A stretch of 64,000 nt of DNA. It comes from Candidatus Saccharimonadales bacterium. GTDB taxonomy: Bacteria > Patescibacteriota > Saccharimonadia > Saccharimonadales > UBA4665. The notes under the pieces were generated by a model that made no database searches, was not told the origin of the DNA, and was given only the letters and a program-made list of their open reading frames with translations. A program made the translations under genes and the position numbers. This document shows, in pieces, positions 33,915-53,059 of this stretch. Location: positions 373-64,372 of the forward strand of contig DATKHB010000027.1 in the NCBI GenBank assembly GCA_035510455.1, written 5' to 3'. Numbering within the stretch: position 1 is the first letter of the stretch; every line of letters starts with the position of its first letter.

Positions 33915-36413
33915 ATGAAGACCAAAACTGATTTACTAGCAAAACTAGACACTAAACAGCTAGCAGAAGAGCTAAAAACTTCAACCGAAGGATTAACCAG
34001 TGCTGAGGCTCGAGAGCGATTAAAAACAGACGGTCCGAACGTTCTGACAACTAAAAGAAGAACAACCTCACTGCAGCTGATTGTTAAGCAATTTCGAAGC
34101 TCGCTAATTTATATGTTGCTAATCGCTGCCCTACTGTCGTTTATTCTCCATGATAATAACGACGGCATAGTAATTACAGCTATCCTTCTTATTAACACTG
34201 GCCTAGGTTTCTACCAAGAATATAAGTCCGAAAAAGCTATTGAAAAGCTCCAAAAACTAATCAGCCGGGAAGTATTAGTTAAAAGGGATGGCAAAGAAGC
34301 CCTGATTGCCGAACATTTGCTGGTTAATGGCGATCTAGTTGTGCTTAGGGAGGGGGACATTGTCCCTGCTGATATTAGATTGTTTGGTACAGATGACTTT
34401 AGCGTTAACGAATCGCAATTGACTGGCGAATCCCAGCCGGTAATAAAAAGCGACCTAGGGCCGAACTCGATTGCTTATGCCGGTAGTACCGTTGAACAAG
34501 GGGAGGGGCATGGCTTCGTATATGCTGTTGGCGTAAACACCGAGCTAGGCAAGATCGCCCATTTATCGACTACCACTAAACGAGTTACCCAGTATGAACA
34601 ATCTTTAGCATCATTCAGTTCGTTCTTGGTGAAGGTGACTTTTCTAACGCTAGTTATGGTTTTTGTTCTGAAAATTATACTGACTCATGGCCATTCCGAT
34701 ATATCTTCGTTAACTTTATTCATTATCGTTCTGGCAATAGCCGTAGTACCTGAAGCATTACCGGTAATCGCGACCGTGACTTTATCCAGGGGGGCGCTTA
34801 ACCTTGCCAAAAAGCACGTTATTGCCAAAACCTTAACAGCCGTTGAGGACCTCGGTAATATAAATATTCTCTGCAGTGACAAGACCGGAACTTTGACTCA
34901 AAACGAGTTGACAATTACTAAACTAACTTCTGACGACCCGGAACTTTTCCAGCGGCTATCACTAGCCAGTCTAGATACTATGGACGAGAAACGAAAGAAG
35001 TTTCAAAGCTCATTCGACAAGGCCTTTATTAAATACGCGCCTGATAGTATCAAAGACCAAGTAAGTTCATATAAAAGACAAGACGAGTTGCCTTTTGATC
35101 CGGCTGCCAGAAGGAGAAGAGTTGTTTTTTCAAATGGCGACAAAGATTACCTAGTGGAAGTTGGTTCGGTAGAAACACTACTTCTTTTAACTAAGGACCG
35201 TAATCATGAGAAGTACAGTCAAATTATAAAAAAAGATGGCAAGATAGGGCTTAGGCATCTTGGCATCGCCTACAAAGAGGTAAAGTATCATCCCAAATTT
35301 GATATTCTATCAAACGAGGACGGACTAAAGTTCGCCGGCTTTGTAGCCTTGGAGGATCCGCTCCGACCGAGCGCTAAGCACACGATTAACCTTGCCGAAA
35401 AACTTGGAGTCGTGATTAAAATTCTTTCAGGGGATAGTCGGGAAGTTACGCAGTATGTGGCCAGCGAAGTCGGTCTTATTGGGGATGACCAAATTGTTTA
35501 TATTGGCGACGAAATAGAAGCCATGAGCGACAGTGAACTTAGTGAGGCTGTCCAGAAGAACAATGCATTTGCTCGATTGAAGCCCGAACAAAAATACCGA
35601 ATTATTAAGTTGCTCAAACTCCAAGGAAACGTAGTCGGTTACCAAGGTGATGGTATAAATGATGCACCGGCACTGAAATTAGCAGATGTAGCAATTGCCG
35701 TCAATAATGCCACTGACGTCGCTCAAGATAGTGCTGACATTTTGCTCCTCAGAAATGATATTGGCGTGATCATCAATGGTATTAAATTTGGCCGGACAAT
35801 CTTCTCTAACATTAATAAATATATTCGTTATACCATGATTGGTAATTTTGGTAATTTCTTTGCTTTAAGTGCCCTCTATTTGCTATCGGCTAATTTACCG
35901 CTTCTTACCATCCAGTTGCTGCTGACCAATTTATTAGGCGATGTGCCTCTGATAACTATTTCGACCGACAACGTGGAGCTTAGTGAGCTTAATAGGCCAA
36001 GTAAATATAGCACCCGTTCACTATTATTCATTTCGATGTTCCTCGGTACATTTACAGCGCTGTTTGAGCTCTTTTTCTTCGCCATAGTAAAGAGTCAGCC
36101 TGTACCCATCGCTCAAACCAGCCTGTACCTATATCTAACCATTATGGGACTAGTTATTATTTTATCGGTCCGCAACCGCGGGCATTTCTGGAAGGCGCCT
36201 AAGCTTTCCTCGGCTCTTAAAATTTCTTTTTGCAGCGTGGCGGTTATAACGGTTGCCATGATTTATTTTGGACCATCAAAACACCTGTTCTCATTTGCGC
36301 CTCTTTCGATAGGTATGCTAAGTATCGTGGCCGCCATGACCCTTTTATATAACATGGTCTTAGACACCATTAAAGTTTGGTTCTACAAATCAAAGATTAG
36401 TTCTATATCCTAG
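33915..36413 (+). CDS. cation-transporting P-type ATPase (type II/III, Ca2+/Mg2+-like)
   Basis: DKTGTLT phosphorylation site, TGES, GDGINDAPAL, and N-terminal LTSAEARERL cation-ATPase motif. Confidence 0.88.
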   Translation: MKTKTDLLAKLDTKQLAEELKTSTEGLTSAEARERLKTDGPNVLTTKRRTTSLQLIVKQFRSSLIYMLLIAALLSFILHDNNDGIVITAILLINTGLGFYQEYKSEKAIEKLQKLISREVLVKRDGKEALIAEHLLVNGDLVVLREGDIVPADIRLFGTDDFSVNESQLTGESQPVIKSDLGPNSIAYAGSTVEQGEGHGFVYAVGVNTELGKIAHLSTTTKRVTQYEQSLASFSSFLVKVTFLTLVMVFVLKIILTHGHSDISSLTLFIIVLAIAVVPEALPVIATVTLSRGALNLAKKHVIAKTLTAVEDLGNINILCSDKTGTLTQNELTITKLTSDDPELFQRLSLASLDTMDEKRKKFQSSFDKAFIKYAPDSIKDQVSSYKRQDELPFDPAARRRRVVFSNGDKDYLVEVGSVETLLLLTKDRNHEKYSQIIKKDGKIGLRHLGIAYKEVKYHPKFDILSNEDGLKFAGFVALEDPLRPSAKHTINLAEKLGVVIKILSGDSREVTQYVASEVGLIGDDQIVYIGDEIEAMSDSELSEAVQKNNAFARLKPEQKYRIIKLLKLQGNVVGYQGDGINDAPALKLADVAIAVNNATDVAQDSADILLLRNDIGVIINGIKFGRTIFSNINKYIRYTMIGNFGNFFALSALYLLSANLPLLTIQLLLTNLLGDVPLITISTDNVELSELNRPSKYSTRSLLFISMFLGTFTALFELFFFAIVKSQPVPIAQTSLYLYLTIMGLVIILSVRNRGHFWKAPKLSSALKISFCSVAVITVAMIYFGPSKHLFSFAPLSIGMLSIVAAMTLLYNMVLDTIKVWFYKSKISSIS

Positions 36414-36502
36414 ACAGACAAAAGACTTTTTAAATTAGCATAGAATTCGTTAAGCTTATATTAAGTTTTCTGTAATACGATAGTATTTACTTGGCTTTAA
36501 CG

Positions 36503-37315
36503 ATGAAGAAGAACAATAAATTATTACCATTCTTATTAATAGTAGTCCTAAGCTCCGGAGCAGGCTTCCTCGGCGGTCTTATTTCTTCGCACCTAAAGGC
36601 TGATTCGGCTGATACGTTTTCGAGTATTGTGTCTCCGTCAAATACCAGCTCCTTGGCCGCCGAGTCCAATACTGACACTATAAAAAGTGACTATCAGCAG
36701 ACTTCAGCGAGCGTAGTAAGCGTCTCTACTCAAAGTACGACTTATGATCTTTTCGGAAATGCCCAAACTGAGCAGGGCGAAGGTACCGGCATGATACTTA
36801 CTTCTAACGGCTATATCTTGACTAATAAGCATGTTGTCCCAGAGGGGGCTCAGAGTGTTAGTGTGACCACCGAAAACAATGCCCAATACGTGGCTACCGT
36901 TATTGCGCTTGATCCCAATAATGACTTAGCGCTTATAAAAATCAACGCTAGTAACTTAACTCCCATTAAATTGGGCGACTCTAGTCAGGAGCAGGTCGGG
37001 GACAGTGTTATTGCTATCGGGAATGCCTTAGGACAGTTTCAAAATACTCTAGACCAAGGCATTATTTCCGGCCTGAACCGCTCGATTAGCGCAGGTGATA
37101 ATGGCCTAGACCAAGAATCTCTGTCCGGATTATTGCAGACGGATGCCGCGATTAACCCAGGTAACTCTGGTGGTCCGTTGGTTGATGTCGCTTCCGACAC
37201 TGTTATTGGCATAAATACGGCTATATCTAGCACCGGGCAAGATCTAGGCTTTGCTATTCCAATCGATCAAGTAAAATCTTTCATTGCTCCTTACGTATCA
37301 TCAGTAAGCACCTAA
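36503..37315 (+). CDS. secreted trypsin-like serine protease (HtrA-like, no PDZ domain)
   Basis: Catalytic triad contexts TNKHVV, NDLALIKI and GNSGGPLVD, with an N-terminal signal/anchor. The ATG at 36503 is preferred over TTG 36491. Confidence 0.85.
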   Translation: MKKNNKLLPFLLIVVLSSGAGFLGGLISSHLKADSADTFSSIVSPSNTSSLAAESNTDTIKSDYQQTSASVVSVSTQSTTYDLFGNAQTEQGEGTGMILTSNGYILTNKHVVPEGAQSVSVTTENNAQYVATVIALDPNNDLALIKINASNLTPIKLGDSSQEQVGDSVIAIGNALGQFQNTLDQGIISGLNRSISAGDNGLDQESLSGLLQTDAAINPGNSGGPLVDVASDTVIGINTAISSTGQDLGFAIPIDQVKSFIAPYVSSVST

Positions 37316-37394
37316 ATTATCCGAACCCATTTAATTAGTTCTAGAACTTCTGTCAGATATTGCTTATAATACGATTGTTAAGGGTTAAGTCTAT

Positions 37395-37424
37395 TTGACT
37401 AAAACTTAACTTTAAGTTTATAAT
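37395..37424 (+). promoter_or_regulatory. strong sigma70-type promoter (TTGACT-18 nt-TATAAT) heading the repeat-protein module
   Basis: TTGACT at 37395-37400 and TATAAT at 37419-37424, inside an AT-rich 178-nt intergenic region. Confidence 0.5.
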
Positions 37425-37493
37425 ATGCACAAGAATAAGTTTTCGTAAACTTAATTTCTTAATGATTAAAAATGAGGTGGGGGGGATGAGCCG

Positions 37494-37634
37494 ATGGCAC
37501 TAGATTCACTTAAAATATCATCTATTATGGGCCTTGTCTTTGGCCTAATTTCTCTTGTGGTGGCTTTCGTTGTTTTGGCAGACTCGAAGGTTGGTTTGAC
37601 GGCGACAAATATTAGTTCAAGCAATTTTAATTAG
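37494..37634 (+). CDS. 46-aa single-TM micro-protein (below the ORF-track length cutoff)
   Basis: Hand translation gives MALDSLKISSIMGLVFGLISLVVAFVVLADSKVGLTATNISSSNFN. The strong SD GAGGTGGGGGGG ends 8 nt upstream. The stop lies 18 nt before the next gene's ATG. Confidence 0.45.
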   Translation: MALDSLKISSIMGLVFGLISLVVAFVVLADSKVGLTATNISSSNFN

Positions 37635-37652
37635 ATTTTAGGAGTGTACATT

Positions 37653-38963
37653 ATGCCGGAGCATTTAGATCCTCAACGAGTCATGTTAGAAGAGCTAGCA
37701 ATAGCGGGGTATACAGATCTACAGCAACAAACAGAAACAGAGGACTTAAGCCTACCAGAACGAACAATGAGACTCCCTAGGAGGTTATCTGGGCTTAGAA
37801 GCTTTGGTGTAGCGGCTTTATCGCTGGTTTCTGTAGCCAGTTTAACCGGACGAGCTAACCCATCCGAAGGTGTAAGCCACCATTCTAAATCGTCTGTTCC
37901 TGCCGCTAGTGCCAAGCCATGGTACAGAGCGGCTGCGGGTTGTACTAGTGGGAATGACCCAGGAGTTGAATTTGAAGTGTTCGGTCTCTCATCAAGTGAC
38001 GATGATATTTCGGTGGAAGTCGGCGCTCTTGGAGGTTATTTTCAAGCAGAAGGGAGCACGTTCGAAACGTTTGTTGGTTCCCTAGAGCAGTCAGGACCCC
38101 AGGAAATTGATGTTTACGCGGGTGGAAGTTTAGTGTCGCCAGGTCATAGAACGGTCTCACTGCCAAAAACTTGTCCAGTTTCGTCTTTCGTAGGCATGGC
38201 GCCTACCCCCAACGGCGAAGGCTACTGGTTGCTTAAGAACAATCCCCTTACCAGTAAAGCTGCTGATTTTAATATGGTTGAACCTTTTGGTGACGCCAAA
38301 AACAACGGCGAAATGACAAATACTCACTCTTTGTTCTATCCTCTAGTTGACATGGCGCCTACCCCCAACGGCGAAGGCTATTGGCTGGAAGCTAGCGACG
38401 GTGTGGTATCTAAATTTGGCAACGCCAAGAACTATGGTTCAGCTGGGGAGTATCTGGTTCAATCAGATTTTGTAGGCATGGCGCCTACCCCCAACGGCGA
38501 AGGCTACTGGCAAGTAACTCGCTACGGTGTGGTATCTAAATTTGGCAACGCCGAATTATATGATACACAGAAAATACCAAGCGGTACCGACGATGTTATA
38601 GGGATTGAATCTACTCCTAGCGGCGAAGGCTACTGGCTCTTTAGTTCTACGGGCGAAGTCTGGAGTGAGGGCGATGCTAAGTGGTATGGATCAATAGAAG
38701 ACAGCCCTCTAGTCGACATGGCACCGACTTCCAACGGCGAAGGCTACTGGCTGGCTACTTCAACCGGTCACATATACCAGAGAGGTGATGCAAAGTTTTA
38801 TGGCTCTCCGGCTCATTCTAGGATAAAACTCTCTGCGCCTATAGTTAGTATTAAATCTACCCCCAACGGCGAAGGCTACTGGGCCCTAGATGGCAACGGT
38901 AAAGTGTACCCATTTGGCAACGCCAAGGATTACGGGCCAGTAACTTTAAGACCTAGAACTTAG
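37653..38963 (+). CDS. membrane-anchored protein with six blade-like repeats (putative six-bladed beta-propeller)
   Basis: 436 aa from the ATG at 37653 (TAGGAG SD; the track ORF starts at GTG 37644). A hydrophobic anchor (FGVAALSLVSVASL) follows RRLSGLR. Six repeats fit [FLVI]xx[MI]x[PS]T[PS]NGEGYW-x(6-20)-[FG]G[ND]AKxYG. Confidence 0.8.
   Translation: MPEHLDPQRVMLEELAIAGYTDLQQQTETEDLSLPERTMRLPRRLSGLRSFGVAALSLVSVASLTGRANPSEGVSHHSKSSVPAASAKPWYRAAAGCTSGNDPGVEFEVFGLSSSDDDISVEVGALGGYFQAEGSTFETFVGSLEQSGPQEIDVYAGGSLVSPGHRTVSLPKTCPVSSFVGMAPTPNGEGYWLLKNNPLTSKAADFNMVEPFGDAKNNGEMTNTHSLFYPLVDMAPTPNGEGYWLEASDGVVSKFGNAKNYGSAGEYLVQSDFVGMAPTPNGEGYWQVTRYGVVSKFGNAELYDTQKIPSGTDDVIGIESTPSGEGYWLFSSTGEVWSEGDAKWYGSIEDSPLVDMAPTSNGEGYWLATSTGHIYQRGDAKFYGSPAHSRIKLSAPIVSIKSTPNGEGYWALDGNGKVYPFGNAKDYGPVTLRPRT
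38187..38945 (+). repeat. intragenic tandem repeats (six units, roughly 117-156 nt apart) with near-identical DNA cores
   Basis: The core GGCATGGCGCCTACCCCCAACGGCGAAGGCTACTGG recurs almost exactly near 38193 and 38475. Closely related copies lie near 38351, 38620, 38717 and 38860. GGTGTGGTATCTAAATTTGGCAACGCC is also duplicated (about 38400 and 38524). Confidence 0.85.
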
Positions 38964-39050
38964 TTCTGAATGGGATTTGAAAGTTATTTGTAGTAGTTTA
39001 TAGGGTTAATTTTATTGTGCTTGAGCTTTTGGTATACTAAGCTAAAAGCT

Positions 39051-39539
39051 ATGGATGATAATAAAAAAAATGAGCCAGTGAACGGTCGTCCAAAAAATTA
39101 TTGGCGTCTACACCCTAGAGTCATAACTGGAGCTATAATCATTGTGATTTTATTGGTTGGCTATATAGGCTGGCATTATGCTAACAGTCGTAAGGAGACG
39201 CCAGACCAACAGGCAATAAATTTGATTAACAAACAACTAAAAACAACGAGCAACTCGGCAGTAGAACTGGGGCTATACCAGAGCCTAGCAACTTATTGTC
39301 AGGCCGAGAACGACCAGACCTGTACTCATCAAGCCCTGAACAATGCTGCTAAGCTAGTCCCGAATAACATCACGACCTTAACTCAGTTTGGCGATCTGGC
39401 AATGTCTAGCGGTGACAAAACCAGTGCTCTAAAATATTATACTCAAGCGCGTAATCTAATCATGCAAACTACCGGCGGGACAAATCAAAGCTTTGCACTT
39501 GAACAGATCGAGACTAAAATTAAGCAAGCCGGGGGATAA
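39051..39539 (+). CDS. single-TM protein with TPR-like helical repeat
   Basis: 162 aa from the ATG at 39051, with TM helix VITGAIIIVILLVGYIGW and TPR-like segments (ALNNAAKLVPNN..., ALKYYTQARNL). Its stop is 2 nt before the GTG of the next gene. Confidence 0.55.
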   Translation: MDDNKKNEPVNGRPKNYWRLHPRVITGAIIIVILLVGYIGWHYANSRKETPDQQAINLINKQLKTTSNSAVELGLYQSLATYCQAENDQTCTHQALNNAAKLVPNNITTLTQFGDLAMSSGDKTSALKYYTQARNLIMQTTGGTNQSFALEQIETKIKQAGG

Positions 39540-39541
39540 TA

Positions 39542-42500
39542 GTGATAGCCAGACGTCACCCCCACAGAAAAAAACTTGTTTGGTTAATATTTATCGTTGG
39601 GCTATTAGCTTTTAGTGTGGTTATAATAAGTAGCTCAAAACCTACCCGGGCAGCTTCTATTGGAGGGCTTTATAGACTACCGTTCGACATAGGCGATAGA
39701 CAGCATCCAATTTACGAAGAAATTGCTGAACCCAATGCAGCACTATCTCTAAACGCACCAATAGGCTCGTATGACCTATATGCTAGTCCTGCGAATGGTG
39801 CTAAAAATATTGATTTTGAGTTTCAGCTTGATAGCTGTCCACCGGATAATACTGGCATCATAGCTGTAGAAGGTTGTGCAAAACCAGGCCAACCAACAAC
39901 AATAGCGCAATTTTCTGTAGCCGATACGGTGCATGTCTATTACAGCGGTCCAATAACCCAGAGCGGCACTCTTCCTAGCTCTAGTACATACTATTCCTAT
40001 GTTATACCTACGGCAGACGCTACGCCTATCCCGGGGAGTAATTTGTATTCCGTCAAGCTTCAAGTATTTTTCCCTGAAAGCGTGACCAAAGCAGGACTAG
40101 GAGCTCTATATGCCTTTCGCATAAACACAATTGGGACCAATACGCAGGTATTTTATAGCCAAAGTGACCAAGACCAAGGCCAGTGCGGCCCGGGCCAAGC
40201 GCCACCCTGTACGCCTATAGGCGATTCTTTTTCTGAGCAGCAACGCGGCGGCGTCCAAGGTTCTGATTCCCAAACCGAAAAAGCTGCTGAGTCCACGCTT
40301 GAAATTCCTTTTAGTGTAGCCTGCGCGGTATCGCCTGGCTATCTGGAACAACTGCAATGGTATGATGCTGACGGTTACCCCGGAGGTATACCGTGGAACC
40401 CGGATATAAACTTCGATCTGCTTGACCGAACCTCAAATAGCCCTAGGACTTCTTACACCCAATTTTATTATCCTTCTGGTGCTCCCTTCGCAACATATAC
40501 TCAGAATAACCAACCGCTACCAGCAGGTGTAGTGGGTTCTAGTGACCCTCCAGAAGTTAGTAGTGCAAGTCAACCCGAGATTGGCGGCGATGAAGCTTAC
40601 GGTACCGCATCTTTCAAGGCAAATCCAGGGGATGATTATCTGTGGACATGGAATAATGTTGAATTCGATAACGGCGTGCAGTTTTCTATACCAACTGATG
40701 CAGTACTCCCTGATCTTGGTTGCAGCAAAGATCATCAACCGACTCTAACCGCTACATGCACTGACAATATGATAACCGGTATAGCGAATGACCAAGACGC
40801 TCTAGGCCAAGGTGGCGGCCCTGTAACGGTCGAAGTAAAGACAACGGCTAGGGGATTAGGGGGCAATGTAGATATTGTCGGCATTGCCGCTTCTTCAAAA
40901 GATGGCTATTGGGAAGCTGATAGCGATGGACAGGTTTATGAATTTGGCAATGCGCCTGACTTTCCCGACCCAGGGGGTGTTGGCCCGACTATAGGCGGTA
41001 TCAGCCCGGTACTCAGTGGTCCGAAGGTGGTTGGTATAGCTAGCACTCCCGATGGAGGAGGCTACTGGCTGGTTGACGATGCCGGTACAGTGTATCCGTT
41101 TGGCGACGCTACTAATTACGGAAGTTCGCCCTCTGGCGCTCGAACCGGTATCACTGGTATAGCAGTCACCCCCGATGGAGGAGGCTACTGGCTGGTAACA
41201 AGATACGGCGCTGTTATTCCCTTTGGCGACGCTGGGGAGTATGAGAACGGGGTAACAAACTATGGTGGTGGTAAGGGCGAGCCTAACATTGTCGGCATTG
41301 CTGCTGATCAAAACATTGGTAAATCTACGTCAGGGCCGAATGGTACAACTGTACCGTCAGCTTATTATGGCTACTGGTTAATAGGAAGCAATGGAACTGT
41401 TTGGGGCAAGGGAGGACCGAATGCCACCGTCAGCCAGGCGCCGTGGGAAGGCGAAAAATTGACTTCTGGTAGCGACACTGACGTTGCAATAGTTGCCGAT
41501 CCAACAAGTGGCTCTAACCAACCTAATCAATATTATTATGAAGTATCATCGGAAGGGAATATATGGGTACGACCGGCGGCAGATCCAAGTTATGGTTCGC
41601 CAATATCTGATGACGAAACGGTCAGTGCTCCCATTACAAGTATGGCTGTCACGCCTGATGGGACAGGTTATTGGGAGACTGGTAATAATGGACAAATATA
41701 TAACTTCGGAAGCGCTAAAGACCACGGCTGGGCAATCTCTCAGAGCATAGGCAAGACCACCACCACGGCTCCTTATACTAGTAATCCAAATTTCACATTT
41801 GATCCATCTAACTGGTTAGCTACCGGACCGACGAGCTATGTTGTAATTGCCGAAGATGTCCCGCCGCCAAATTATACTGGCACCCCGGCCAATAATGCTA
41901 CTGAGATCGTTACTTGTGGCGCTCCTTCCAACTCTGTTGGTACTGTCCATTGCAACTTAGATAACACGAACCCCGATCAATCTGCTTACGATCCCTTCAC
42001 GGCTACCATGAAGATTAAATTTACCGGGCAAGGACCAATCAGCGGATCTGCGGTGTTTACTGTTACAGGTACCAGCTTAGTTTATTCTAAATCGTATCCT
42101 GGCATTACAGCAGGTAGTACCTTCAGTCCATTTAATATAACTCAAAATATAACTATCGATCCGGCAGGGACGTATACGCTGAGTGGAGTCTACACTTATA
42201 ACGGTGGTAGTGCTTCATGTAGTACCTCAGTGACTGTTTATAATCAGCCATATTTGTCAGTTTCTGGCGGAGACGTGTCAGTCGGCGGTTATTTTGGTAC
42301 GACTTGTACCGATAACAATGGCCCCCCCAAGCCTGGTGTGTATAGCTGGAATAATGATTCAGGAGGCTACAGCGGTGCTGGCGACCAATTCGCTGTCTAT
42401 GCGCTCGGTCCTATTCGCGGATTTGCCAGCTCGGCTATTAATGACCCACCGACTGATTTATCGTTTTCCAACACTACGGACATTAGCCAGCTAGATTCCA

Positions 42501-43186
42501 ATGGCTTAAATAATGCTACGGACGGTGGCGGTTTTGGCGAGGTCCCTTGTCCGACAAATTACTTCGCCTCTCCTGAGGTTTCAGCTACGCTCCCACCGAA
42601 TAGCCCTGTTAATATGAGTAGCCTTATAGTTCCTAACAAAAATAAAGTATATAACTATGCCAAACCGGGTGGCCTAAATCTCACCCTAAACGCTGACGCA
42701 TCCATACCGGACAGCTCTCAGGTTACACTATATGTAACCGGGAACGTCTATATAAGGGGCAATTTGACCTATAATAGTAATGGCGGTAATGGCCACTGGA
42801 CGACAGTTAGCGAGATACCAGCATTTCGGCTTTATGTATCCGGCAATATATATATAGACAGTGGCGTAACGAATTTAGAAGGTGTATACGTTGCCCAGCC
42901 GACTTCCTTAAAAGCTGCGCCCCAAGTCACCGGCTTTATTTATGACTGCGCTACGAACGCATTTGCCCCGGTGACAACCGCTGCGTTAGGCAACTGCGAC
43001 CAGTCGCTAAACATTAATGGTTCGTTCACGGCCTATCATATTGACTTTGAAAGAGTTTCCGGAACACTCGACCACGGAAGTGCAGCCGAGTCATTTACCT
43101 ACGATCCGGCTGTCTGGCTGACCACTCCAGCGTTAGCATCTCCAGGGCAATACAGTGCCGTTGAAAACTTACCCCCAATTTTGTAA
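39542..43186 (+). CDS. 1214-aa surface protein: N-terminal anchor, unknown ~440-aa domain, six blade-like repeats, ~480-aa C-terminal beta-rich domain
   Basis: Long uninterrupted ORF with a GTG start preceded by GGGGGA. TM anchor LVWLIFIVGLLAFSVVIISS. Repeats such as VVGIASTPDGGGYWLVDDAGTVYPFGDATNYG. C-terminal strands LYVTGNVYIRGNLTY and LYVSGNIYIDSG. No prepilin motif. Confidence 0.85.
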   Translation: MIARRHPHRKKLVWLIFIVGLLAFSVVIISSSKPTRAASIGGLYRLPFDIGDRQHPIYEEIAEPNAALSLNAPIGSYDLYASPANGAKNIDFEFQLDSCPPDNTGIIAVEGCAKPGQPTTIAQFSVADTVHVYYSGPITQSGTLPSSSTYYSYVIPTADATPIPGSNLYSVKLQVFFPESVTKAGLGALYAFRINTIGTNTQVFYSQSDQDQGQCGPGQAPPCTPIGDSFSEQQRGGVQGSDSQTEKAAESTLEIPFSVACAVSPGYLEQLQWYDADGYPGGIPWNPDINFDLLDRTSNSPRTSYTQFYYPSGAPFATYTQNNQPLPAGVVGSSDPPEVSSASQPEIGGDEAYGTASFKANPGDDYLWTWNNVEFDNGVQFSIPTDAVLPDLGCSKDHQPTLTATCTDNMITGIANDQDALGQGGGPVTVEVKTTARGLGGNVDIVGIAASSKDGYWEADSDGQVYEFGNAPDFPDPGGVGPTIGGISPVLSGPKVVGIASTPDGGGYWLVDDAGTVYPFGDATNYGSSPSGARTGITGIAVTPDGGGYWLVTRYGAVIPFGDAGEYENGVTNYGGGKGEPNIVGIAADQNIGKSTSGPNGTTVPSAYYGYWLIGSNGTVWGKGGPNATVSQAPWEGEKLTSGSDTDVAIVADPTSGSNQPNQYYYEVSSEGNIWVRPAADPSYGSPISDDETVSAPITSMAVTPDGTGYWETGNNGQIYNFGSAKDHGWAISQSIGKTTTTAPYTSNPNFTFDPSNWLATGPTSYVVIAEDVPPPNYTGTPANNATEIVTCGAPSNSVGTVHCNLDNTNPDQSAYDPFTATMKIKFTGQGPISGSAVFTVTGTSLVYSKSYPGITAGSTFSPFNITQNITIDPAGTYTLSGVYTYNGGSASCSTSVTVYNQPYLSVSGGDVSVGGYFGTTCTDNNGPPKPGVYSWNNDSGGYSGAGDQFAVYALGPIRGFASSAINDPPTDLSFSNTTDISQLDSNGLNNATDGGGFGEVPCPTNYFASPEVSATLPPNSPVNMSSLIVPNKNKVYNYAKPGGLNLTLNADASIPDSSQVTLYVTGNVYIRGNLTYNSNGGNGHWTTVSEIPAFRLYVSGNIYIDSGVTNLEGVYVAQPTSLKAAPQVTGFIYDCATNAFAPVTTAALGNCDQSLNINGSFTAYHIDFERVSGTLDHGSAAESFTYDPAVWLTTPALASPGQYSAVENLPPIL
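40871..41728 (+). repeat. six blade-like coding repeats in the 1214-aa protein (same family as 38187-38945)
   Basis: Six units: IVGIAASSKDGYWEADSDGQVYEFGNA; VVGIASTPDGGGYWLVDDAGTVYPFGDA; ITGIAVTPDGGGYWLVTRYGAVIPFGDA; IVGIAAD...YYGYWLIGSNGTVWGKG; DVAIVAD...YYYEVSSEGNIWV; ITSMAVTPDGTGYWETGNNGQIYNFGSA. The DNA core CCCGATGGAGGAGGCTACTGGCTGG is duplicated near 41049 and 41170. Confidence 0.8.
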
Positions 43187-43219
43187 CATGATTTATCTTG
43201 TAATGACTAACTACGCTTA

Positions 43220-43228
43220 TGCTATAAT
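43220..43228 (+). promoter_or_regulatory. extended -10 element (TGcTATAAT) 9 nt upstream of the pilM ATG
   Basis: TGCTATAAT at 43220-43228. There is no SD between it and the ATG at 43238. A weak TTGTAA -35 lies at 43198-43203. Confidence 0.35.
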
Positions 43229-43237
43229 CGAGACAAT

Positions 43238-44278
43238 ATGAGTTTACTGAGTGGGGTATCTGAATTCTTTGGGCTGGACATCGGGACAACGTCTATCAGA
43301 GTGGTTCAGCTGCGTCGCAGTGGTGCAACCAGATCGTTAGTTAAATACGGCTATGTGCCAATTGATAACAAGTTAGCGCTAAGTGATTCTAAAGCCGACC
43401 AAGACAAGCTGGGACAAAAGGTTAGTGAACTTATCAGTCAAGCTCATATGTCCACCAAAAACGTGGCTGTAGGTATCCCATCGCAAAAGGTTTTTACCAC
43501 GATTGTAGATATTGATAGAATGCCCAAAGGTGACTTAGATAAAGCTATCCACTATCAGGCAGACGCCTTAATCCCAACACCACTAAGTGATTCGAAAATA
43601 GACTGGGCCCTAGTTGGTGATTCGCCCAAAGACAGAAAGAAGATGGAGATTTTACTCTCCAGTGTACCCAATAATTTTGTAGAACAAAGGCTAGACATGC
43701 TGGAGTCTGTTGGGCTTAATGTAATTGCTTTTGAACCAGACAATCTGGCGCTAGCCAGAGCCCTAACTCCTCCTGAAGCGGCTACTCCACAAATGGTCGT
43801 TGATCTAGCCAATAAGAGCACTGACCTAGTAATTACCATGAATGGCACCCCGAAATTAACTCGCGCTATACCTACTGGTACGGAAGCAATAGTTAAGACA
43901 GCTGCCCAAAATTTGAACATTGACGACAAACAAGCCGAGCAGTTTGTTTTTCGGTTTGGGCTTAACAAGGACAAGCTGGAAGGCCAGGTATACCAGGCTA
44001 TAATTGGTACAGTCGATCTGTTGACGACCGAGATAGAAAAATCCATAAAGTTTTTTCAAACTCGCTATTCAGATTCAAAAATCGATCGTATTATAGTAAC
44101 TGGAGCAGCATCAACTTTGCCTGAATTTCCTAATCGTCTGGCTGATTTGTTTGGTTTGAATGTCGAGATTGGCAATGCCTGGCGAAATGTTTCGTTTGCC
44201 GCTGAACGCCAGAATGAATTAATGTCTATAGCCAATAACTTTAGTGTGGCCGTCGGTCTCGCGGAGAGGGAAGAATGA
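43238..44278 (+). CDS. pilM: type IV pilus assembly protein PilM (actin-like ATPase fold)
   Basis: FGLDIGTTSIRVVQL phosphate-1 motif, 346 aa, followed by pilN-like and pilO-like genes. Confidence 0.85.
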   Translation: MSLLSGVSEFFGLDIGTTSIRVVQLRRSGATRSLVKYGYVPIDNKLALSDSKADQDKLGQKVSELISQAHMSTKNVAVGIPSQKVFTTIVDIDRMPKGDLDKAIHYQADALIPTPLSDSKIDWALVGDSPKDRKKMEILLSSVPNNFVEQRLDMLESVGLNVIAFEPDNLALARALTPPEAATPQMVVDLANKSTDLVITMNGTPKLTRAIPTGTEAIVKTAAQNLNIDDKQAEQFVFRFGLNKDKLEGQVYQAIIGTVDLLTTEIEKSIKFFQTRYSDSKIDRIIVTGAASTLPEFPNRLADLFGLNVEIGNAWRNVSFAAERQNELMSIANNFSVAVGLAEREE

Positions 44279-44982
44279 TTCAATTTAACCTTCTACCGGA
44301 TGTAAAACTAAAATACGTTAAAGCTCGTCGAGCTCAGCATACGGCCGTAGCCATATCAACCATTGCAACAATTGCCGCCGTTGTTGTTCTGCTGTTATGC
44401 ATATTTTTTGTGGACGTTGTCCAAAAAAGAAGCATCAGCAACCTTAACAACAATATTACAAAGTATACTGCTCAAGTAGAGAAAACGCCCAGCCTTAACA
44501 AGGTCTTAACTATCCAAAACCAACTCGATTCTATAAATTCTCTAGAAGCCAGTAAACCGGCTGCCTCTAGATTATTTGGGTACATTACTCAGTTAACACC
44601 CTTAGCGGCTAGTATCGGGAGCTTTGACCTTGATATATCGACCAACAGCTTTACTATTGACGGTACGGCTGATACTTTAGCTACGGTAGACCAGTATGTA
44701 GATACGCTTAAGTTTACTACCTACAGCGTTAATGGCGGCGTGGCTTTACCGGCGTTTTCGAGTGTCGATCTGTCAAGTTTTAGCATTAACACTAATACTC
44801 AACAAGGTCAACCAGGAGTTACCTACGGTATTACAGCTAATTTCGACCCGACTATTTTCAATGCCAGCAAAAACGTCGGCCTGTCTGTCCCTAGTGAAAT
44901 CAGTACTCGTTCAGAAACCGATCAACCGACCGCACTATTCAACCAACAGAGCAGTCCCCAAACTAATAATAACAAGACTTAG
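44275..44982 (+). CDS. pilN: PilN-like pilus assembly protein
   Basis: MIQFNLLPD N-terminus followed by one TM helix. ATGA overlap with the pilM stop. Confidence 0.75.
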   Translation: MIQFNLLPDVKLKYVKARRAQHTAVAISTIATIAAVVVLLLCIFFVDVVQKRSISNLNNNITKYTAQVEKTPSLNKVLTIQNQLDSINSLEASKPAASRLFGYITQLTPLAASIGSFDLDISTNSFTIDGTADTLATVDQYVDTLKFTTYSVNGGVALPAFSSVDLSSFSINTNTQQGQPGVTYGITANFDPTIFNASKNVGLSVPSEISTRSETDQPTALFNQQSSPQTNNNKT

Positions 44983-44996
44983 CGGGAAGCAATAAA

Positions 44997-45674
44997 ATGG
45001 CCAACGGACCCCACATCTCAATCAAGCAACTTAAAATAGATAAAGCAAACACTACGATGTTGGTAGTAATAGCGGTAGCTGCCTTTGTGGTGGTTTTTTC
45101 TTTGATCTCATCAAAGACTTTGATAAGCCAGTACAATTATCAAAACAGGGTAATCAATGCTAAGCGCGTTACCTATAATCAATTAAAAATTGACGTTAAT
45201 AATGCCACTAGCCTCGAAGCTTCCTATGAATCATTTGAGAATCAGCCGCTAAACATTCTAGGCCAAAGCCCCAGCGGCAGCAGCCAGAATAGCGGCGATA
45301 ATGCTAAAATAATTCTTGATGCATTACCTAGCCAATACGATTTTCCAGGTTTTGTCAGTAGTATAGGTAATCTTTTATCGAGCCAAAATTATGTAATAAA
45401 CTCTGTCACCGGCACTGACCTGGGTTCAAGTGAGCCTTCATCGCTATCCTCCGGCCAATCTACCCCAGTTCAGATTCCGTTCGAGATTTCAGTAACCGGT
45501 ACTTACACTACGGTACAACAACTAATATCTACCCTCCAACTATCCATTAGACCCATAGTCATACAGCAGGTAGACCTAAGCGGTACCGATGCTGCTCTAG
45601 AAGCAGATATTACTGCCTATACTTACTATCAGCCGGGCGTGAACTTTTCATTAGGTACTGAGGTGGTAAAATGA
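44997..45674 (+). CDS. pilO: PilO-like pilus assembly protein
   Basis: One TM helix, then a coiled segment and an alpha/beta domain. Call rests on position after pilN. Confidence 0.6.
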   Translation: MANGPHISIKQLKIDKANTTMLVVIAVAAFVVVFSLISSKTLISQYNYQNRVINAKRVTYNQLKIDVNNATSLEASYESFENQPLNILGQSPSGSSQNSGDNAKIILDALPSQYDFPGFVSSIGNLLSSQNYVINSVTGTDLGSSEPSSLSSGQSTPVQIPFEISVTGTYTTVQQLISTLQLSIRPIVIQQVDLSGTDAALEADITAYTYYQPGVNFSLGTEVVK

Positions 45675-45925
45675 AGCAAAAAGATCTAGCAATAATCATT
45701 CTGGTGGTAGCTATTAGCGGCATAATTTCTTATGTAGTGTCCAATAAAATCATATCGACACCGGCCGACCGCCAGCTAAATGTACAGGTGGCACCAGCTA
45801 TTAACACGAATTTTACTAAACCAAACGCAACGTACTTTAATTCGCAGTCAATTGATCTAACCCAACTGATTCAAATCGGGAATAACTCTAACCAAACGCC
45901 TTTTAACCAAACGACTACACAGTAG
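45671..45925 (+). CDS. small single-TM protein of the pilus operon
   Basis: 84 aa with TM helix LAIIILVVAISGIISYVV. ATGA overlap with the pilO-like stop. It occupies the PilP position but I see no recognisable PilP similarity. Confidence 0.5.
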   Translation: MKQKDLAIIILVVAISGIISYVVSNKIISTPADRQLNVQVAPAINTNFTKPNATYFNSQSIDLTQLIQIGNNSNQTPFNQTTTQ

Positions 45926-45943
45926 CATGAGTGGTAATCTATC

Positions 45944-47755
45944 ATGAGTGTTTTATCTGCAACCAGTCAGCAGCAAGTGGAAGACAGTATTGTTCATGAT
46001 CATCTGCTTGATGAAAAGCAGCTACTGGCTCTTAAAGAAAAGGCCAAGAAAGACCATGTACCATTTATCAGCTTGCTGGTAAGTGAAGGTCATATTAGCA
46101 CCGAACAGTTGTCTAAGTTAATAGCTAAATACAATAATCTACCGTATGTAAATCTAACCAATGCTAGTATTGATCCTAAAATTCTAGCGCTTTTACCTCA
46201 TGAAACAGCCGAGCATTATATGGCGGTTCCCCTAGGCGAAATACAGCACCGTTTGGTAGTAGCAATGCTCGATGCGGCCAATGTCCAAGCTGTAGACTTT
46301 CTGTCTAACAAAATAGGCCGGCCAATAAAAGTTTATGCCGCGAGCGAGGAAGGTATCCGTCAGGTTCTCAAACAGTACCAACCTAGTTTAGGCCAGGATA
46401 TAGTCGGCGAGATCGGCGATGTAGACAAGGCTGCAGAAGCTCAAGACCAAACTAAAGTTAATGAAATGAATACTGAGGCTACACCAAAAGAGAAAAGTAT
46501 TGGTAGCGTAGTTCACGACTCTCCAATAAGTAAAGCGTTATCGACTATTTTAGAATATGCTGCTAAGAATCGTGCTAGTGATGTACACATTGAACCAAGG
46601 CAAAACTCACTTAAGATTCGTTGCCGAATAGATGGGATTTTGAGAGAGATAATGGAGCTTCCTAAGAGCACTGAGCCGCCGCTAATTTCTCGCATTAAGA
46701 TTCTGGCTAACTTAAAAATTGATGAGCACCGAATACCCCAAGATGGCCAATTTACACTTAGGATGGGGGATAAAGAGATTGATCTACGTATTGCAATAGC
46801 ACCAGTGGTGTGGGGCGAGCAAGTAGTCATCCGTCTTCTAGATAAAAGCGGTACCAGCCTCAAGCTTGAAGACATGGGTTACCAAGGCCGAGCACTTAGG
46901 AATATTCGCGAGGGGCTTAAACAGTCAAGTGGCATGATACTAACTAGTGGACCAACCGGATCCGGTAAATCAACTTCTCTTTACGCTCTGTTGCAGGAGA
47001 TTAATAGCGATTCTATTAACATCGTTACACTAGAGGATCCGGTCGAATACAAGATGGAGGGGATCAATCAGATACAGATTAACCCCGAAGTAGGACTGAC
47101 TTTTGCTACTGGCTTAAGATCGATACTTCGCCAAGATCCTGATGTGGTTATGGTAGGTGAGATCCGCGATTCAGAAACTGCAGAATTAGCCGTTCAAGCA
47201 GCTTTAACTGGTCATTTAGTTTTCAGTACCTTGCACACTAATTCTGCAGCTGGGATCCTGCCAAGACTACTGGACATGGATGTTGAACCATTTCTGATTG
47301 CATCGACGGTCAGAACGGTTATTGGGCAAAGGTTGGTTCGCAGGATATCAGAGAAGAGAGAGACTTATCAATCTGATGCCGCAGAAACTGCGTCCATTAA
47401 AGAGACTATTGGTAGACTACTGCCGCAATCTGATGCAGATAAGAAGAAAGCTTCCGAAGATCTTGGGTTTGAAGACTTGCCACTAAGGGATCAAAATGCT
47501 TATACTCTAACTAAGGGTATTAATAGCGGCGATACCCCAGGCGGCTATAAGGGTCGGCTTGGACTATACGAAGTTTTTAATATTACGGAACAAATTCAAC
47601 AATTGATTCTTAAAAGAGCAACCAGTAATGAAATCCAAAAAGTCGCGGTACAGCAGGGAATGGTTACTATGAGAGAAGACGGATATCTTAAAGCATTATC
47701 AGGACAAACAACGCTTAATGAGGCCAATCGGGTAGCGGCCTCCGATAACGCATAG
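45944..47755 (+). CDS. pilB: type IV pilus extension ATPase PilB (GspE family)
   Basis: T2SSE N-terminal domain, Walker A GPTGSGKST, Asp box, Walker B, His box (FSTLHTNSAAG). Confidence 0.9.
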   Translation: MSVLSATSQQQVEDSIVHDHLLDEKQLLALKEKAKKDHVPFISLLVSEGHISTEQLSKLIAKYNNLPYVNLTNASIDPKILALLPHETAEHYMAVPLGEIQHRLVVAMLDAANVQAVDFLSNKIGRPIKVYAASEEGIRQVLKQYQPSLGQDIVGEIGDVDKAAEAQDQTKVNEMNTEATPKEKSIGSVVHDSPISKALSTILEYAAKNRASDVHIEPRQNSLKIRCRIDGILREIMELPKSTEPPLISRIKILANLKIDEHRIPQDGQFTLRMGDKEIDLRIAIAPVVWGEQVVIRLLDKSGTSLKLEDMGYQGRALRNIREGLKQSSGMILTSGPTGSGKSTSLYALLQEINSDSINIVTLEDPVEYKMEGINQIQINPEVGLTFATGLRSILRQDPDVVMVGEIRDSETAELAVQAALTGHLVFSTLHTNSAAGILPRLLDMDVEPFLIASTVRTVIGQRLVRRISEKRETYQSDAAETASIKETIGRLLPQSDADKKKASEDLGFEDLPLRDQNAYTLTKGINSGDTPGGYKGRLGLYEVFNITEQIQQLILKRATSNEIQKVAVQQGMVTMREDGYLKALSGQTTLNEANRVAASDNA

Positions 47756-47771
47756 TAAAGGGGTGGTAAGT

Positions 47772-48839
47772 ATGCAAGGACAACCAAAAATAGAAGTACT
47801 CTTAGAGGAAGTAGTTCGCAAGAAAGCTTCCGACCTTCATCTACAGGTTGGTTTGCCCCCTATGCTGAGAGTTGACGGTAAGTTAGTGTCTGTCACAGCC
47901 GCAGATATTTTAACTGAAGAGATGGTGGAAGCCCTTATATTCGCGATACTTGATGAGGATCAGAAACAAATTTTGCTAAAAGACAAAGAATTTGATTTTA
48001 GTTTTGCATTCGGAAATATAGGCCGTTTTCGCGTAAACGCTTTCCATGAAAGGGGTAACCTAGCTGCTGCCCTTAGGCTTATACCAAATGAAATATTGAC
48101 TATCGAACAACTTGGTCTACCGCCAATAATAGATAAATTTGCTCAATATCCGCGCGGCCTAGTTTTAGTAACCGGCCCGACGGGTTCAGGTAAATCAACA
48201 ACCTTAGCCGCAATGGTCCATAAGATTAATCTTGAACAGGGCAAGCATATTATTACCATTGAAGATCCCATAGAATATGCTCACAAGTCGAAAAAATCCA
48301 TCGTAGTGCAGCGAGAAGTTCACTATGATACATATTCTTTCTCTACGGCACTACGTTCAGCGCTTCGCGAGGATCCTGACGTAGTCTTGATAGGTGAGAT
48401 GCGAGACCTCGAAACAATTGCATCGGCCATAACAATAGCTGAAACCGGGCACCTAGTTCTAGCCACGCTTCATACTAATTCGGCCGCCCAGAGTATTGAT
48501 CGCATGATAGATGTTTTTCCGCCTCACCAACAGTCTCAAATTCGAGCTCAGTTATCTAATATTCTAATGGCTATATGTTCGCAAAGATTAATACCGGCAA
48601 TTGGTGGCGGCCGAATAGCGGCGGCCGAAATTCTTGTTAGCACATCAGCTGTAAGGAATATTATTAGAGAAGGTAAAAGCCATCAGCTGGAAGCCGTAAT
48701 CCAAACCGGAGCCGATCATGGCATGCAGTCGATGGATAAGACACTCGTGAATCTAATCAAAAACGGTACTATAACCTACGATGAAGCTAAAGAGTACGCT
48801 GTTGATCTTGAGGAACTCGACAGGATAATGAGAGAATAA
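47772..48839 (+). CDS. pilT: type IV pilus retraction ATPase PilT
   Basis: ASDLHL, GPTGSGKSTT, LATLHTNSAAQSIDRMIDVFP, and AIRNIIREGK-like motif (AVRNIIREGKSHQ). Confidence 0.9.
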   Translation: MQGQPKIEVLLEEVVRKKASDLHLQVGLPPMLRVDGKLVSVTAADILTEEMVEALIFAILDEDQKQILLKDKEFDFSFAFGNIGRFRVNAFHERGNLAAALRLIPNEILTIEQLGLPPIIDKFAQYPRGLVLVTGPTGSGKSTTLAAMVHKINLEQGKHIITIEDPIEYAHKSKKSIVVQREVHYDTYSFSTALRSALREDPDVVLIGEMRDLETIASAITIAETGHLVLATLHTNSAAQSIDRMIDVFPPHQQSQIRAQLSNILMAICSQRLIPAIGGGRIAAAEILVSTSAVRNIIREGKSHQLEAVIQTGADHGMQSMDKTLVNLIKNGTITYDEAKEYAVDLEELDRIMRE

Positions 48840-48840
48840 C

Positions 48841-50061
48841 ATGCTGGCATATAACTATATAGCTCGCAATCCTTCTACGGGCGAGAAAGTCAAATCAGTT
48901 ATTCAAGCACAGAACGAACAAGCAGCTGCCAAAGCTCTTAAGAAAGAAGGGCTAGTACCTCTTGATATTTCACTTTCGAGCAAAGGTTTTAGCGGGTTCA
49001 TGGACCGTTTCAGCCGCGTTAGATCAAAGGACAAAGTACTTTTCTCCAGACAGCTAGCTACTCTCATTAATGCTGGGCTACCAATTCTTCAAGCTCTTAG
49101 AAGCGTGTCGGAACAGACTACCAGCAAACCGTTTAAAGTAGTTATAAACCAAATAGTGAATGACGTAGAGACAGGATCAACGCTCTCTTCGTCTATGGCA
49201 AAGCATCCAAGAGTCTTTAATCAAGTATATATAAGTCTGATTGCTGCCGGTGAGACGTCTGGTACCCTAGACGCCGCTCTAGAAAGGCTAGCTATCCAGC
49301 AAGAAAAAGATGCTGATATCAATAGCAAGGTTAGAGGAGCATTGATTTATCCGGCTATAGTTTTAGTGGTCATGCTAGCGGTAGTTACTTTCATGCTAGT
49401 TAAGGTTTTACCGCAGGTTCAAGTTCTTTATACCACCTTCCCGGGGTATAGTTTACCAATAGAAACAAGACTACTACTTGATGTCTCGCATATTATTACT
49501 AAATGGTGGTGGCTAGTGCTCCTTATATTGGTGCTGATAGTAGTTTTTGCGAGTAGGTGGTCTAAAACAGATAGTGGTGGAAGATTTTTTGACAATCTTA
49601 AATTACACTTATGGCCTATTGGACCGCTTTTCAAGAAGATGTACATGGCGCGATTTGCTCGTACGGCGTCAACTTTAGTGGCTAGCGGTGTACCAATAAT
49701 TCGGGTACTGGAAATTACTAGCGATGCGGTCGATAATGTTGTCATTGGCGATGCTATAAAAAGGGCGATCGAGAAAGTCAAGGGCGGTAAGGCTCTAAGT
49801 GATTCGTTGCAGAGCGAATCTACGTTTTTAGTGCTGGTGCCGAATATGTTGAGAATCGGAGAACAATCTGGGTCCGTGGAGCAAATGCTAAGTAAATGCG
49901 CTGATTACTACGAAAAAGAGGTTGAGGAAGCAGTTAAAAATATATCAACGCTCATAGAACCGGTAATGATGGTTATACTCGGCATTATGGCCCTGATAAT
50001 CGTTGCGGCGGTCTTATTGCCGATATACGGACTGGCTGGGTCAGGTGACATACAGTTTTAG
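48841..50061 (+). CDS. pilC: type IV pilus platform protein PilC (GspF family)
   Basis: Two GspF repeats, three TM helices, 406 aa. Confidence 0.88.
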   Translation: MLAYNYIARNPSTGEKVKSVIQAQNEQAAAKALKKEGLVPLDISLSSKGFSGFMDRFSRVRSKDKVLFSRQLATLINAGLPILQALRSVSEQTTSKPFKVVINQIVNDVETGSTLSSSMAKHPRVFNQVYISLIAAGETSGTLDAALERLAIQQEKDADINSKVRGALIYPAIVLVVMLAVVTFMLVKVLPQVQVLYTTFPGYSLPIETRLLLDVSHIITKWWWLVLLILVLIVVFASRWSKTDSGGRFFDNLKLHLWPIGPLFKKMYMARFARTASTLVASGVPIIRVLEITSDAVDNVVIGDAIKRAIEKVKGGKALSDSLQSESTFLVLVPNMLRIGEQSGSVEQMLSKCADYYEKEVEEAVKNISTLIEPVMMVILGIMALIIVAAVLLPIYGLAGSGDIQF

Positions 50062-50151
50062 GATTGTGGAAAAGTAGTTTGCATAAGCGCTATTTTGATG
50101 TATCATTTACGCATAAGCATTAATAAACACCGCAAAAGGGGGCATTTGCAA

Positions 50152-50694: not shown

Positions 50695-50714
50695 TTTTGT
50701 AAGTAGTAAAGGCT

Positions 50715-50748: not shown

Positions 50749-50767
50749 GCTGTGTTAGGATTAATAA

Positions 50768-51577: not shown

Positions 51578-51623
51578 AACTACCCTTTAATCATTAATTA
51601 CTTCTTATGCTATACTTTAGGAT

Positions 51624-53053: not shown

Positions 53054-53059
53054 TTACAA

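Follow-up and report, generated by a model that had tools for sequence, protein, structure and literature searches.

What do the four open reading frames (ORFs) lying directly upstream of the type IV pilus (T4P) operon of a Candidatus Saccharimonadales bacterium encode, and could they belong to the means by which such organisms choose and hold their hosts? Like other Patescibacteria, the Saccharibacteria are epibionts of host bacteria, and they depend on T4P to attach to them; what recognizes the host has been little explored beyond a single oral strain, TM7x, with its PilX2. The locus considered here lies in a 64-kb stretch of a metagenome-assembled genome (MAG), which was analysed as a whole and is referred to as the window; it comprises a sigma-70-like promoter, ORF1 to ORF4 and the pilus operon starting with pilM, all on the plus strand. 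A first-pass annotation, made from the DNA letters alone, had seen in it a four-gene surface module, in which two large proteins with six-blade repeats would form a host-binding system analogous to PilY1. All four ORFs, the promoter, the 2-nucleotide (nt) junction between ORF3 and ORF4, the 51-nt gap between ORF4 and pilM and the six-fold repeats were confirmed; the module itself had to be redrawn, only ORF3 and ORF4 being conserved, while ORF1 and ORF2 are without counterpart in 83 other related loci.

The explanation put forward, tentatively and with a likelihood somewhat short of even, is that ORF3 and ORF4 form an undescribed two-gene cassette of environmental Saccharimonadales, placed upstream of a pilM-led, pilT-containing operon of the ‘T4P-1’ type and encoding a head-swappable host adhesin, held by a conserved C-terminal domain (C-domain) and a tetratricopeptide repeat (TPR) partner. 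A single odd locus is in this way turned into a defined and searchable protein family of thousands, absent from Pfam and PDB and carrying the signature expected of a host-specificity determinant, namely hypervariable heads set on a conserved mounting domain, with paralogues in tandem. The cassette appears to be a good candidate for how epibionts choose and hold a host. If this is true, the host range of epibionts not in culture could be approached through the sequences of the heads, and the pair formed by the TPR protein and the tail of its partner would represent a new, directly testable mechanism of surface display. The cassette was not described in the open-access literature searched, a silence that may be explained by the lack of a cassette beside pilM in the best-studied oral model, Southlakia.

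The C-domain family and its partner gene

ORF4 (1214 amino acids (aa); positions 39542-43186 of the window; GTG start), identical to HUD06184.1 (locus tag VMR18_04705), consists of a signal peptide or anchor (aa 1-37; 39542-39652), a head (aa 38-440; 39653-40861), six RCC1-like repeats (aa 441-735; 40862-41746), a linker (aa 736-898; 41747-42235) and a strand-rich C-domain with four conserved cysteines (aa 899-1214; 42236-43186), which ends in ENLPPIL-COOH (tail codons at 43169-43183). Searches with the full-length protein returned ORF4 itself, the 77 other matches being confined to the repeat region, and those with its C-terminal 480 aa returned 15 proteins of 411-840 aa, all ending in LPPIL or LPPVF. 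A family profile built on the last ~340 aa and run on 1.84 billion cluster representatives retrieved 6,272 of them at E <= 1e-3 and 2,855 at E <= 1e-30; a profile-seeded word search for further homologues gave 4 only. The C-domain reaches the last residue in all of the 156 complete members examined, 119 of which terminate in LPP(V/I)L (LPPVL in 64 and LPPIL in 55), and the remainder in close variants. ORF4 matches the family hidden Markov model with E = 1e-104, being one of the 16 sequences used to build it, and fits the LPPxL family so defined by its C-terminal domain, its LPPIL end, the presence of ORF3 2 nt before it and that of pilM 51 nt after it.

The family is, for the most part, predicted to be exported, with Sec-like N-termini in 125 of 146 members, and the relatives of ORF4 carry AxA-type cleavable signal peptides. 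Anchoring, as described earlier for ORF4, is not established. A prepilin motif, sought with a regular expression, is absent from ORF2, from ORF4 and from the family (0/164 members), with no N_methyl match in Pfam; the same expression finds GFTIIE in three of the five downstream pilin-locus proteins tested, in agreement with the earlier statement that neither large protein has a prepilin signal.

The AlphaFold2 model of the C-domain improved from a predicted local distance difference test (pLDDT) score of 56 with 16 sequences to one of 81.7, with a predicted template modelling (pTM) score of 0.86, with 109 sequences. The latter model is strand-rich and solenoid-like, the last 17 residues (300-316, including LPPIL) scoring below 50. 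The four cysteine columns are invariant or at least 90% conserved, as would fit an extracytoplasmic, disulfide-bonded domain. Foldseek searches with the poor and the good model against the PDB, and also against BFVD, gave nothing significant: the nearest matches, DUF3494 ice-binding solenoids (E >= 0.09, template modelling (TM) score <= 0.34), and the entry with the highest probability for both models, ComZ (6qvi; probability 0.60, E = 0.36, not significant), are leads only. In the PDB, sequence and profile searches yielded no matches for the C-domain, for the profile of the full family, for the head of ORF4 or for ORF2.

Several known families were considered and rejected. Membership of DUF7305, which is not mentioned in the open-access literature searched, is not supported, fragments of ORF4 scoring 18.4-22.5 bits against a gathering cut-off of 27 bits and 2 of 16 members matching at E <= 0.1. 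A sortase (LPXTG) substrate is excluded, LPP(V/I)L being terminal in the members, with no hydrophobic segment or basic tail after it, and so is a secretin (PilQ/GspD), with no Pfam Secretin match and no secretin among the top 20 of Foldseek. On sequence grounds, the C-domain is a new protein family, with no Pfam match above cut-off and no significant PDB match. The first-pass annotation could assign neither region flanking the ORF4 repeats, and this is borne out: the large protein, an exported non-pilin, falls into none of the families described so far.

The gene in front of ORF4, ORF3 (162 aa; 39051-39539), encodes a basic N-terminus, one transmembrane helix and a TPR domain, the last two being as the first-pass annotation had it. 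The TPR assignment is weak for ORF3 alone (E about 1e-3 to 1e-4 against TPR profiles) and firm at the family level, where TPR_2 of Pfam is matched by 22 of 23 members (best E = 8e-12) and the family profile finds consensus TPR proteins in the PDB with E down to 3e-111. The N-terminus follows the positive-inside rule, so that the TPR domain is predicted to lie outside the membrane. Jackhmmer connects 65 of the 67 positional equivalents of ORF3, and an ORF with a single-pass transmembrane segment and TPR precedes 64 of 71 complete C-domain genes. At the junction, the ORF3 stop codon (TAA, 39537-39539) is followed by ‘ta’ and by the ORF4 GTG at 39542, which has a GGGGGA Shine-Dalgarno (SD) sequence; the 2-nt spacing claimed earlier is thus correct, and the stop of the TPR gene and the start of the C-domain gene overlap or are 2 nt apart in the window and in loci L001, L002 and L086. 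ORF4 is, by prediction, translationally coupled to ORF3.

The position of the cassette was surveyed by using PilM to fetch 80 loci from GTDB contigs (one genome per species), 71 of them with at least 2.5 kb upstream. In 66 of these 71 loci the distance from the end of a C-domain gene to pilM is below 600 nt, and in most cases 40-190 nt; C-domain genes are found there in one to three tandem copies with different heads. Look-ups that started from the family instead (P0081, P0084, P0093, P0087 and P0157) found all five members directly upstream of pilM, each with a small ORF in front. The link to the pilM locus, whose synteny had been proposed as a check, is thus conserved; the propeller, previously taken as the pilus-linked element, is not what is conserved, being absent from the 83 other loci; the conserved, pilus-linked element is the C-terminal solenoid-like domain. 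Three contigs (L010, L017 and L027) in records labelled Nevskiaceae, Bacillota and Chlamydiae carry a Saccharibacteria-type pilM (71% identical), with the cassette also present in L010 and L017; they are probably mis-binned or mislabelled.

Heads, RCC1-like repeats and lineage-specific genes

The heads mounted on the C-domain are hypervariable, the part of the ORF4 head that can be aligned to heads at other loci having a median of 3%, as compared with a median identity of 33% for the C-domain and an identity of 68-75% for PilM in the same loci. ‘Class A’ heads, defined by the motif C-x-N-P-x-G, are found in 52 of the 164 members. The ‘class B’ head of ORF4, with the motifs QWYDxD and WxWNNVxF.N, belongs to no known family and shows weak similarity to P0152, P0108 and the family genes of L056, L060, L062 and L071; neither class has a Pfam or PDB relative. 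The linker between repeats and C-domain, with beta-hairpins in the first model, is suggested to be Ig-like in character by weak DUF11, CARDB and Filamin matches seen in relatives only. In one family member of 1179 aa, P0202, residues 41-150 form a chaperone-like SurA_N domain; this is an unusual head, if not the product of an artefactual gene fusion.

The repeats are shared by ORF4 and ORF2 (436 aa; 37653-38963), which starts with a signal or anchor, followed by a non-repeat region of ~110 aa and by repeats at aa 174-436 (38172-38960). Blades are ~38-52 aa long (~42 aa), with six per domain in both proteins. In ORF2 all six are detectable as DNA repeats, with a spacing of 114-156 nt and a core identity of 74-98%; in ORF4 five of the six copies claimed earlier are clear G(Y/F)W blades and the sixth is degenerate. 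Similarly, the six blades of ORF2 are as first described, and yet they fill ~60% of the protein, which had been presented as made almost entirely of repeats and anchored; anchoring is not established, its N-terminal hydrophobic segment being weak, and an internal ATG at 37767 would yield a classic Sec signal peptide.

The repeats could not be assigned with Pfam, NCBIfam or single-sequence PDB searches, which found just weak similarity to designed WD40-like repeat proteins. A profile of 15 repeat sequences, the blade search advised earlier, matches the RCC1-like domain of HERC2 (4l1m; E = 1.7e-6), followed by the GyrA C-terminal domain and WD40 proteins, and RCC1_2 is matched weakly (E about 0.005) by 3 of the 15 repeat homologues; the fold that had seemed unrecognizable can therefore be related to a known one. 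A typical RCC1 propeller has seven blades of 51-68 aa. As judged from the profile, the repeat of ORF2 and ORF4 is a distant, shortened RCC1-like blade rather than a canonical RCC1 member, and the six tandem repeats together with the RCC1-like match would imply a propeller fold.

Relatives of the repeats are C-terminal modules of multidomain exported proteins, in which they are combined with SpoIID/LytB, Big_3_5, He_PIG, TIG, fn3, GH5 and GH25 domains. The two closest are on contigs of 68.7-68.8% guanine-cytosine (GC) content, and two relatives are labelled Acidimicrobiales; the repeat family appears from these matches to be widespread in exported proteins on high-GC contigs. The ORF2 repeats are 43% identical to the high-GC homologues (E = 6e-49) and 37% identical to those of ORF4. 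A recent duplication as the source of the two propellers is ruled out, since ORF2 is nearer to external relatives than to ORF4. Nor does a recent horizontal transfer leave a compositional signal: the overall GC content of the repeat regions is raised (0.49-0.51), but that of third codon positions (0.41-0.47) is within the range of the other window genes, so that the rise reflects the Gly, Ala and Pro content. A metagenome scan with the propeller and mid region of ORF4 found distant propellers only. Among the 164 family proteins, the repeat domain is present in just one member besides ORF4, namely P0157, which is 46.5% identical to ORF4 over aa 397-871; its head is of class A, a TPR fragment precedes it and pilM follows after 51 nt.

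ORF1 (46 aa; 37494-37634) has one hydrophobic segment and a strong SD (GAGGTGGGGGGG, 7 nt before the ATG). The micro-ORF with a single transmembrane segment noted earlier is thus present as an ORF, and it is best regarded as a lineage-specific, unverified gene: it was called by the JGI and Logan gene callers and not by that of NCBI, its support is the strong SD only, and the copies found are all 100% identical strain variants, hence uninformative on conservation. Phmmer searches of the 83 other loci gave no match for ORF1, the N-terminal region of ORF2 or either repeat domain, which leaves a conserved two-gene cassette with two lineage-specific genes. Of the two accessory factors initially proposed, the TPR protein is a conserved partner, while the micro-protein has no homologue in those loci. 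Five short-read contigs of the same strain (L087-L091), 100% identical to the window, all stop at the start of the ORF2 blade repeats (38038-38219); the repeats appear to break assemblies, and such genes would therefore be under-represented in short-read MAGs.

Possible modes of action

How could the two conserved genes work together? The first would encode a bitopic membrane protein with its TPR domain outside, and the second a Sec-exported protein with a hypervariable N-terminal head on a conserved, Cys-containing, solenoid-like domain of ~315 aa with a free LPP(V/I)L tail. C-domain and tail would constitute an attachment module, through which the protein would be retained on the cell surface or on the pilus machinery, probably by contact with its TPR partner, while the interchangeable head would bind the surface of the host cell. 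In the window the head combines the class B domain with the six RCC1-like blades, and ORF2, as an independently derived exported repeat protein, would have been added upstream together with the unverified ORF1 under a strong promoter. Anchored adhesins (autotransporters, LPXTG proteins, PilY1) are usually built with a variable N-terminal part and a conserved C-terminal module, and TPR domains commonly bind C-terminal peptides; it is on this adhesin-like layout and on this binding habit that the display proposal is based.

A bolder version, which we consider rather doubtful, is that a TPR receptor outside the cytoplasm captures the LPP(V/I)L tail, in the way PEX5 recognizes the peroxisomal targeting signal PTS1, and that interchangeable heads for host binding are thereby displayed on a retractile T4P, either at its base or at its tip, with head swaps setting the host range. 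Just as doubtful is its further element, that the repeat domain in the ORF4 head was acquired, being of a type otherwise found on high-GC contigs.

A parallel is available within the Saccharibacteria, the adhesin proposed for Nanosynbacter lyticus TM7x being the RCC1-type propeller carried by PilX2 (PMC11623550). The protein is described as a T4P-2 minor pilin whose propeller has seven blades and whose gene lies in a pilin locus (PMC11623550). As a pilus-associated Saccharibacterial protein whose RCC1-type propeller is proposed to bind host cell-wall glycans, it is in line with an ORF4 head carrying RCC1-like repeats; however, ORF2 and ORF4 are non-pilins, have six shorter repeats (~42 aa), resemble RCC1 at the profile level only and are encoded beside a pilT-containing locus.

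A number of observations weigh against the display proposal. The synteny survey covers only PilM relatives at least 68% identical. The C-domain has no significant sequence or structural match to any adhesin, anchor or pilus protein. Moreover, pilM seems to have a promoter of its own. An extended -10-like element (TGcTATAAT, 43220-43228) ends 9 nt before its ATG, and comparison of the window with the 60 nt 5′ of pilM in L001-L086 shows a conserved GCTTATGcTATAAT element there; of 85 loci, 48 have a TATAAT-like box whose end is 8-10 nt from the pilM start codon, 56 have one within 60 nt and 41 have the TG extension, and there is no SD in the 9 nt before the pilM ATG of the window. The position of the box and the missing SD suggest a near-leaderless pilM transcript, and co-transcription with the cassette is not required. 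Furthermore, the cassette may be absent. In Southlakia epibionticum ML1, ychF (minus strand) abuts pilM, with no cassette (SEML1_0103/0104; PMC10633639 supplement). The order in L002 and L003 is ychF, cofD, a 200-aa ORF (the positional equivalent of the TPR gene), the C-domain gene and pilM, and by comparison the oral G1 lineage apparently lacks the cassette at this position. In a complete genome (CP064992.1; L065:7864-9932), the C-domain gene before pilM is split into three overlapping ORF pieces, which could be due to a pseudogene, a frameshift or a sequencing error and suggests that the cassette can be lost. From Southlakia and L065 it would follow that the cassette is dispensable for pilus function in some lineages at least and, considering also the promoter of pilM, that it is accessory to the pilus machinery rather than part of its core.

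The first of the rival explanations, an unlikely one although the best placed among them, is a strict analogue of PilY1, in which the C-domain would dock on the minor-pilin complex and the protein would sit at the pilus tip, the TPR protein being an export or assembly chaperone. The resemblance is in the architectural logic: like the non-pilin tip adhesins PilY1 of Pseudomonas and Myxococcus and PilC1-2 of Neisseria, ORF4 is large, has a normal signal peptide instead of a prepilin one, combines a variable N-terminal part with a conserved C-terminal module and has its gene among those of the pilus, within the one-strand cluster that runs from pilM to the PilX_N protein. Its one to three paralogues with different heads recall the three PilY1 paralogues, also with different heads, of M. 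xanthus. ComZ, the tip-located competence pilin of Thermus thermophilus, is a pilus-related beta-solenoid, and it is toward ComZ and DUF7305 that the non-significant top Foldseek probability and the weak, sub-threshold match of the C-domain point; with Foldseek E = 0.36 to 1.2 and TM scores up to 0.26, these fold matches are not significant and, furthermore, ComZ is a pilin according to its PDB entry, whereas no LPPxL family member has a pilin N-terminus. The initial analogy with PilY1 is upheld for the architecture only, and family membership is not: at E <= 1, Pfam gives the weak DUF7305 match for ORF4 and nothing for ORF2, the PilY1/PilC domain is unmatched, and the C-domain is modelled as solenoid-like. 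The parts are, in addition, assigned the other way round, since the propeller is the conserved docking domain in PilY1 and the variable, lineage-specific part in ORF4, whose conserved module is the Cys-containing domain ending in LPPxL. ORF4 is found upstream of pilM and not among the minor pilins, which are 8-11 kb away at the opposite end of the operon; its C-terminal region gave nothing in BLASTP against the local PilX_N protein (best E = 0.55), and a dedicated membrane-bound TPR partner is foreign to PilY1 systems.

Another layout of this kind is offered by the tapirins of Caldicellulosiruptor, non-pilin exported proteins encoded beside the T4P locus in a monoderm, whose C-terminal beta-helix binds an external substrate. 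The likeness of ORF4 to tapirin (6n2c) is limited to this layout: there is no sequence similarity, and the fold match, which ranked 13th (E = 8.6) when the weaker model was used, is absent with the better one. The beta-helix is also the binding part in tapirins, while the solenoid is the conserved, presumably anchoring, part of ORF4. By analogy, ORF4 would be most like a pilus-locus adhesin of the PilY1 or tapirin type, from which its new conserved domain and its own TPR partner set it apart.

Slightly less probable is a role in envelope passage or assembly, with the cassette as a part of the pilus machine in a monoderm-like envelope: a stand-in for PilQ and its pilotin, or a wall-remodelling factor, the TPR ‘pilotin’ binding the tail of the large protein. 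The very consistent adjacency to pilM would suit such a part, the cassette adjoining pilMNO in the place that pilP and pilQ have in diderms, and the combination of TPR partner, conserved C-terminal domain and low-confidence tail has a parallel in the secretin S-domains bound by pilotins. The TPR pilotins PilF/PilW/Tgl and TadD are outer-membrane lipoproteins serving secretins and, like ORF3, small TPR proteins located outside the cytoplasmic membrane, encoded with pilus genes and partnering a large beta-rich protein; ORF3 differs in having an N-terminal transmembrane helix, with no lipobox seen, and a partner that is not a secretin, and the organism carrying it is thought to lack an outer membrane. 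Hypervariable heads and tandem copies with different heads would be odd in a machine part, the predicted fold is a solenoid and not that of a secretin, and Pfam finds no peptidoglycan-hydrolase or AMIN domains in the family. Southlakia, in which most T4P-associated genes are essential, has no cassette beside pilM, and the L065 gene is fragmented.

Equally improbable is the absence of any functional tie to pili, that is, an exported enzyme, a nutrient-binding protein or a surface-layer-like protein with its membrane tether in a gene order simply inherited in compact genomes: the promoter-like element of pilM, the varying upstream neighbours and the close relatedness of the surveyed genomes, whose shared ancestry can explain the synteny, are compatible with it, but the pilM junction is kept while the cassette duplicates, heads are replaced and the upstream flank changes (cofD/ychF in L002, a trypsin-like protease in the window), suggesting selection on adjacency rather than inertia, and no terminator-like site separates ORF4 from pilM.

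Promoters, pilus operon and neighbouring genes

The near-consensus promoter reported 5′ of ORF1 (TTGACT-18-TATAAT; 37395-37424) is present, with the -35 box at 37395-37400, an 18-nt spacer and the -10 box at 37419-37424. With 11 of 12 consensus matches it is the top-scoring site in a 9.7-kb scan, which found no terminator-like site between ORF2 and ORF3, nor between ORF4 and pilM. The whole window contains four sites of at least 11/12, as compared with 1.8 +/- 1.3 in shuffled sequences, so that the promoter at 37395 is plausible, although not statistically decisive by itself. The four sites (positions 100, 784, 20692 and 37395) are all on the plus strand and directly 5′ of ORFs, a hint that this organism makes use of canonical sigma-70 promoters. 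A search of 36000-45000 against Rfam gave no matches. Directly 5′ of the promoter, a trypsin-like serine protease with an N-terminal hydrophobic segment is encoded (36491-37315), a neighbour not kept in other loci.

The T4P operon (43238-54895, plus strand), as defined by Pfam matches and GFTIIE motifs, comprises pilM (43238-44278), a pilN-like gene, pilO, an 84-aa ORF, pilB, pilT, pilC, the major pilin gene, pilD and the genes for three minor pilins and a PilX_N protein (51624-54895). The 84-aa ORF between pilO and pilB (45671-45925) has no Pfam match, and L001, L002, L004 and L086 each have an 83-aa counterpart at the corresponding place; the product is probably a small, conserved part of the pilus machinery. 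Directly after the last pilus gene, the minus strand encodes a tyrosine recombinase (54903-55814; Phage_integrase with a SAM-like N domain), which could be XerC/D or the mark of a mobile boundary, and which is followed by ndk and a tRNA-Arg gene.

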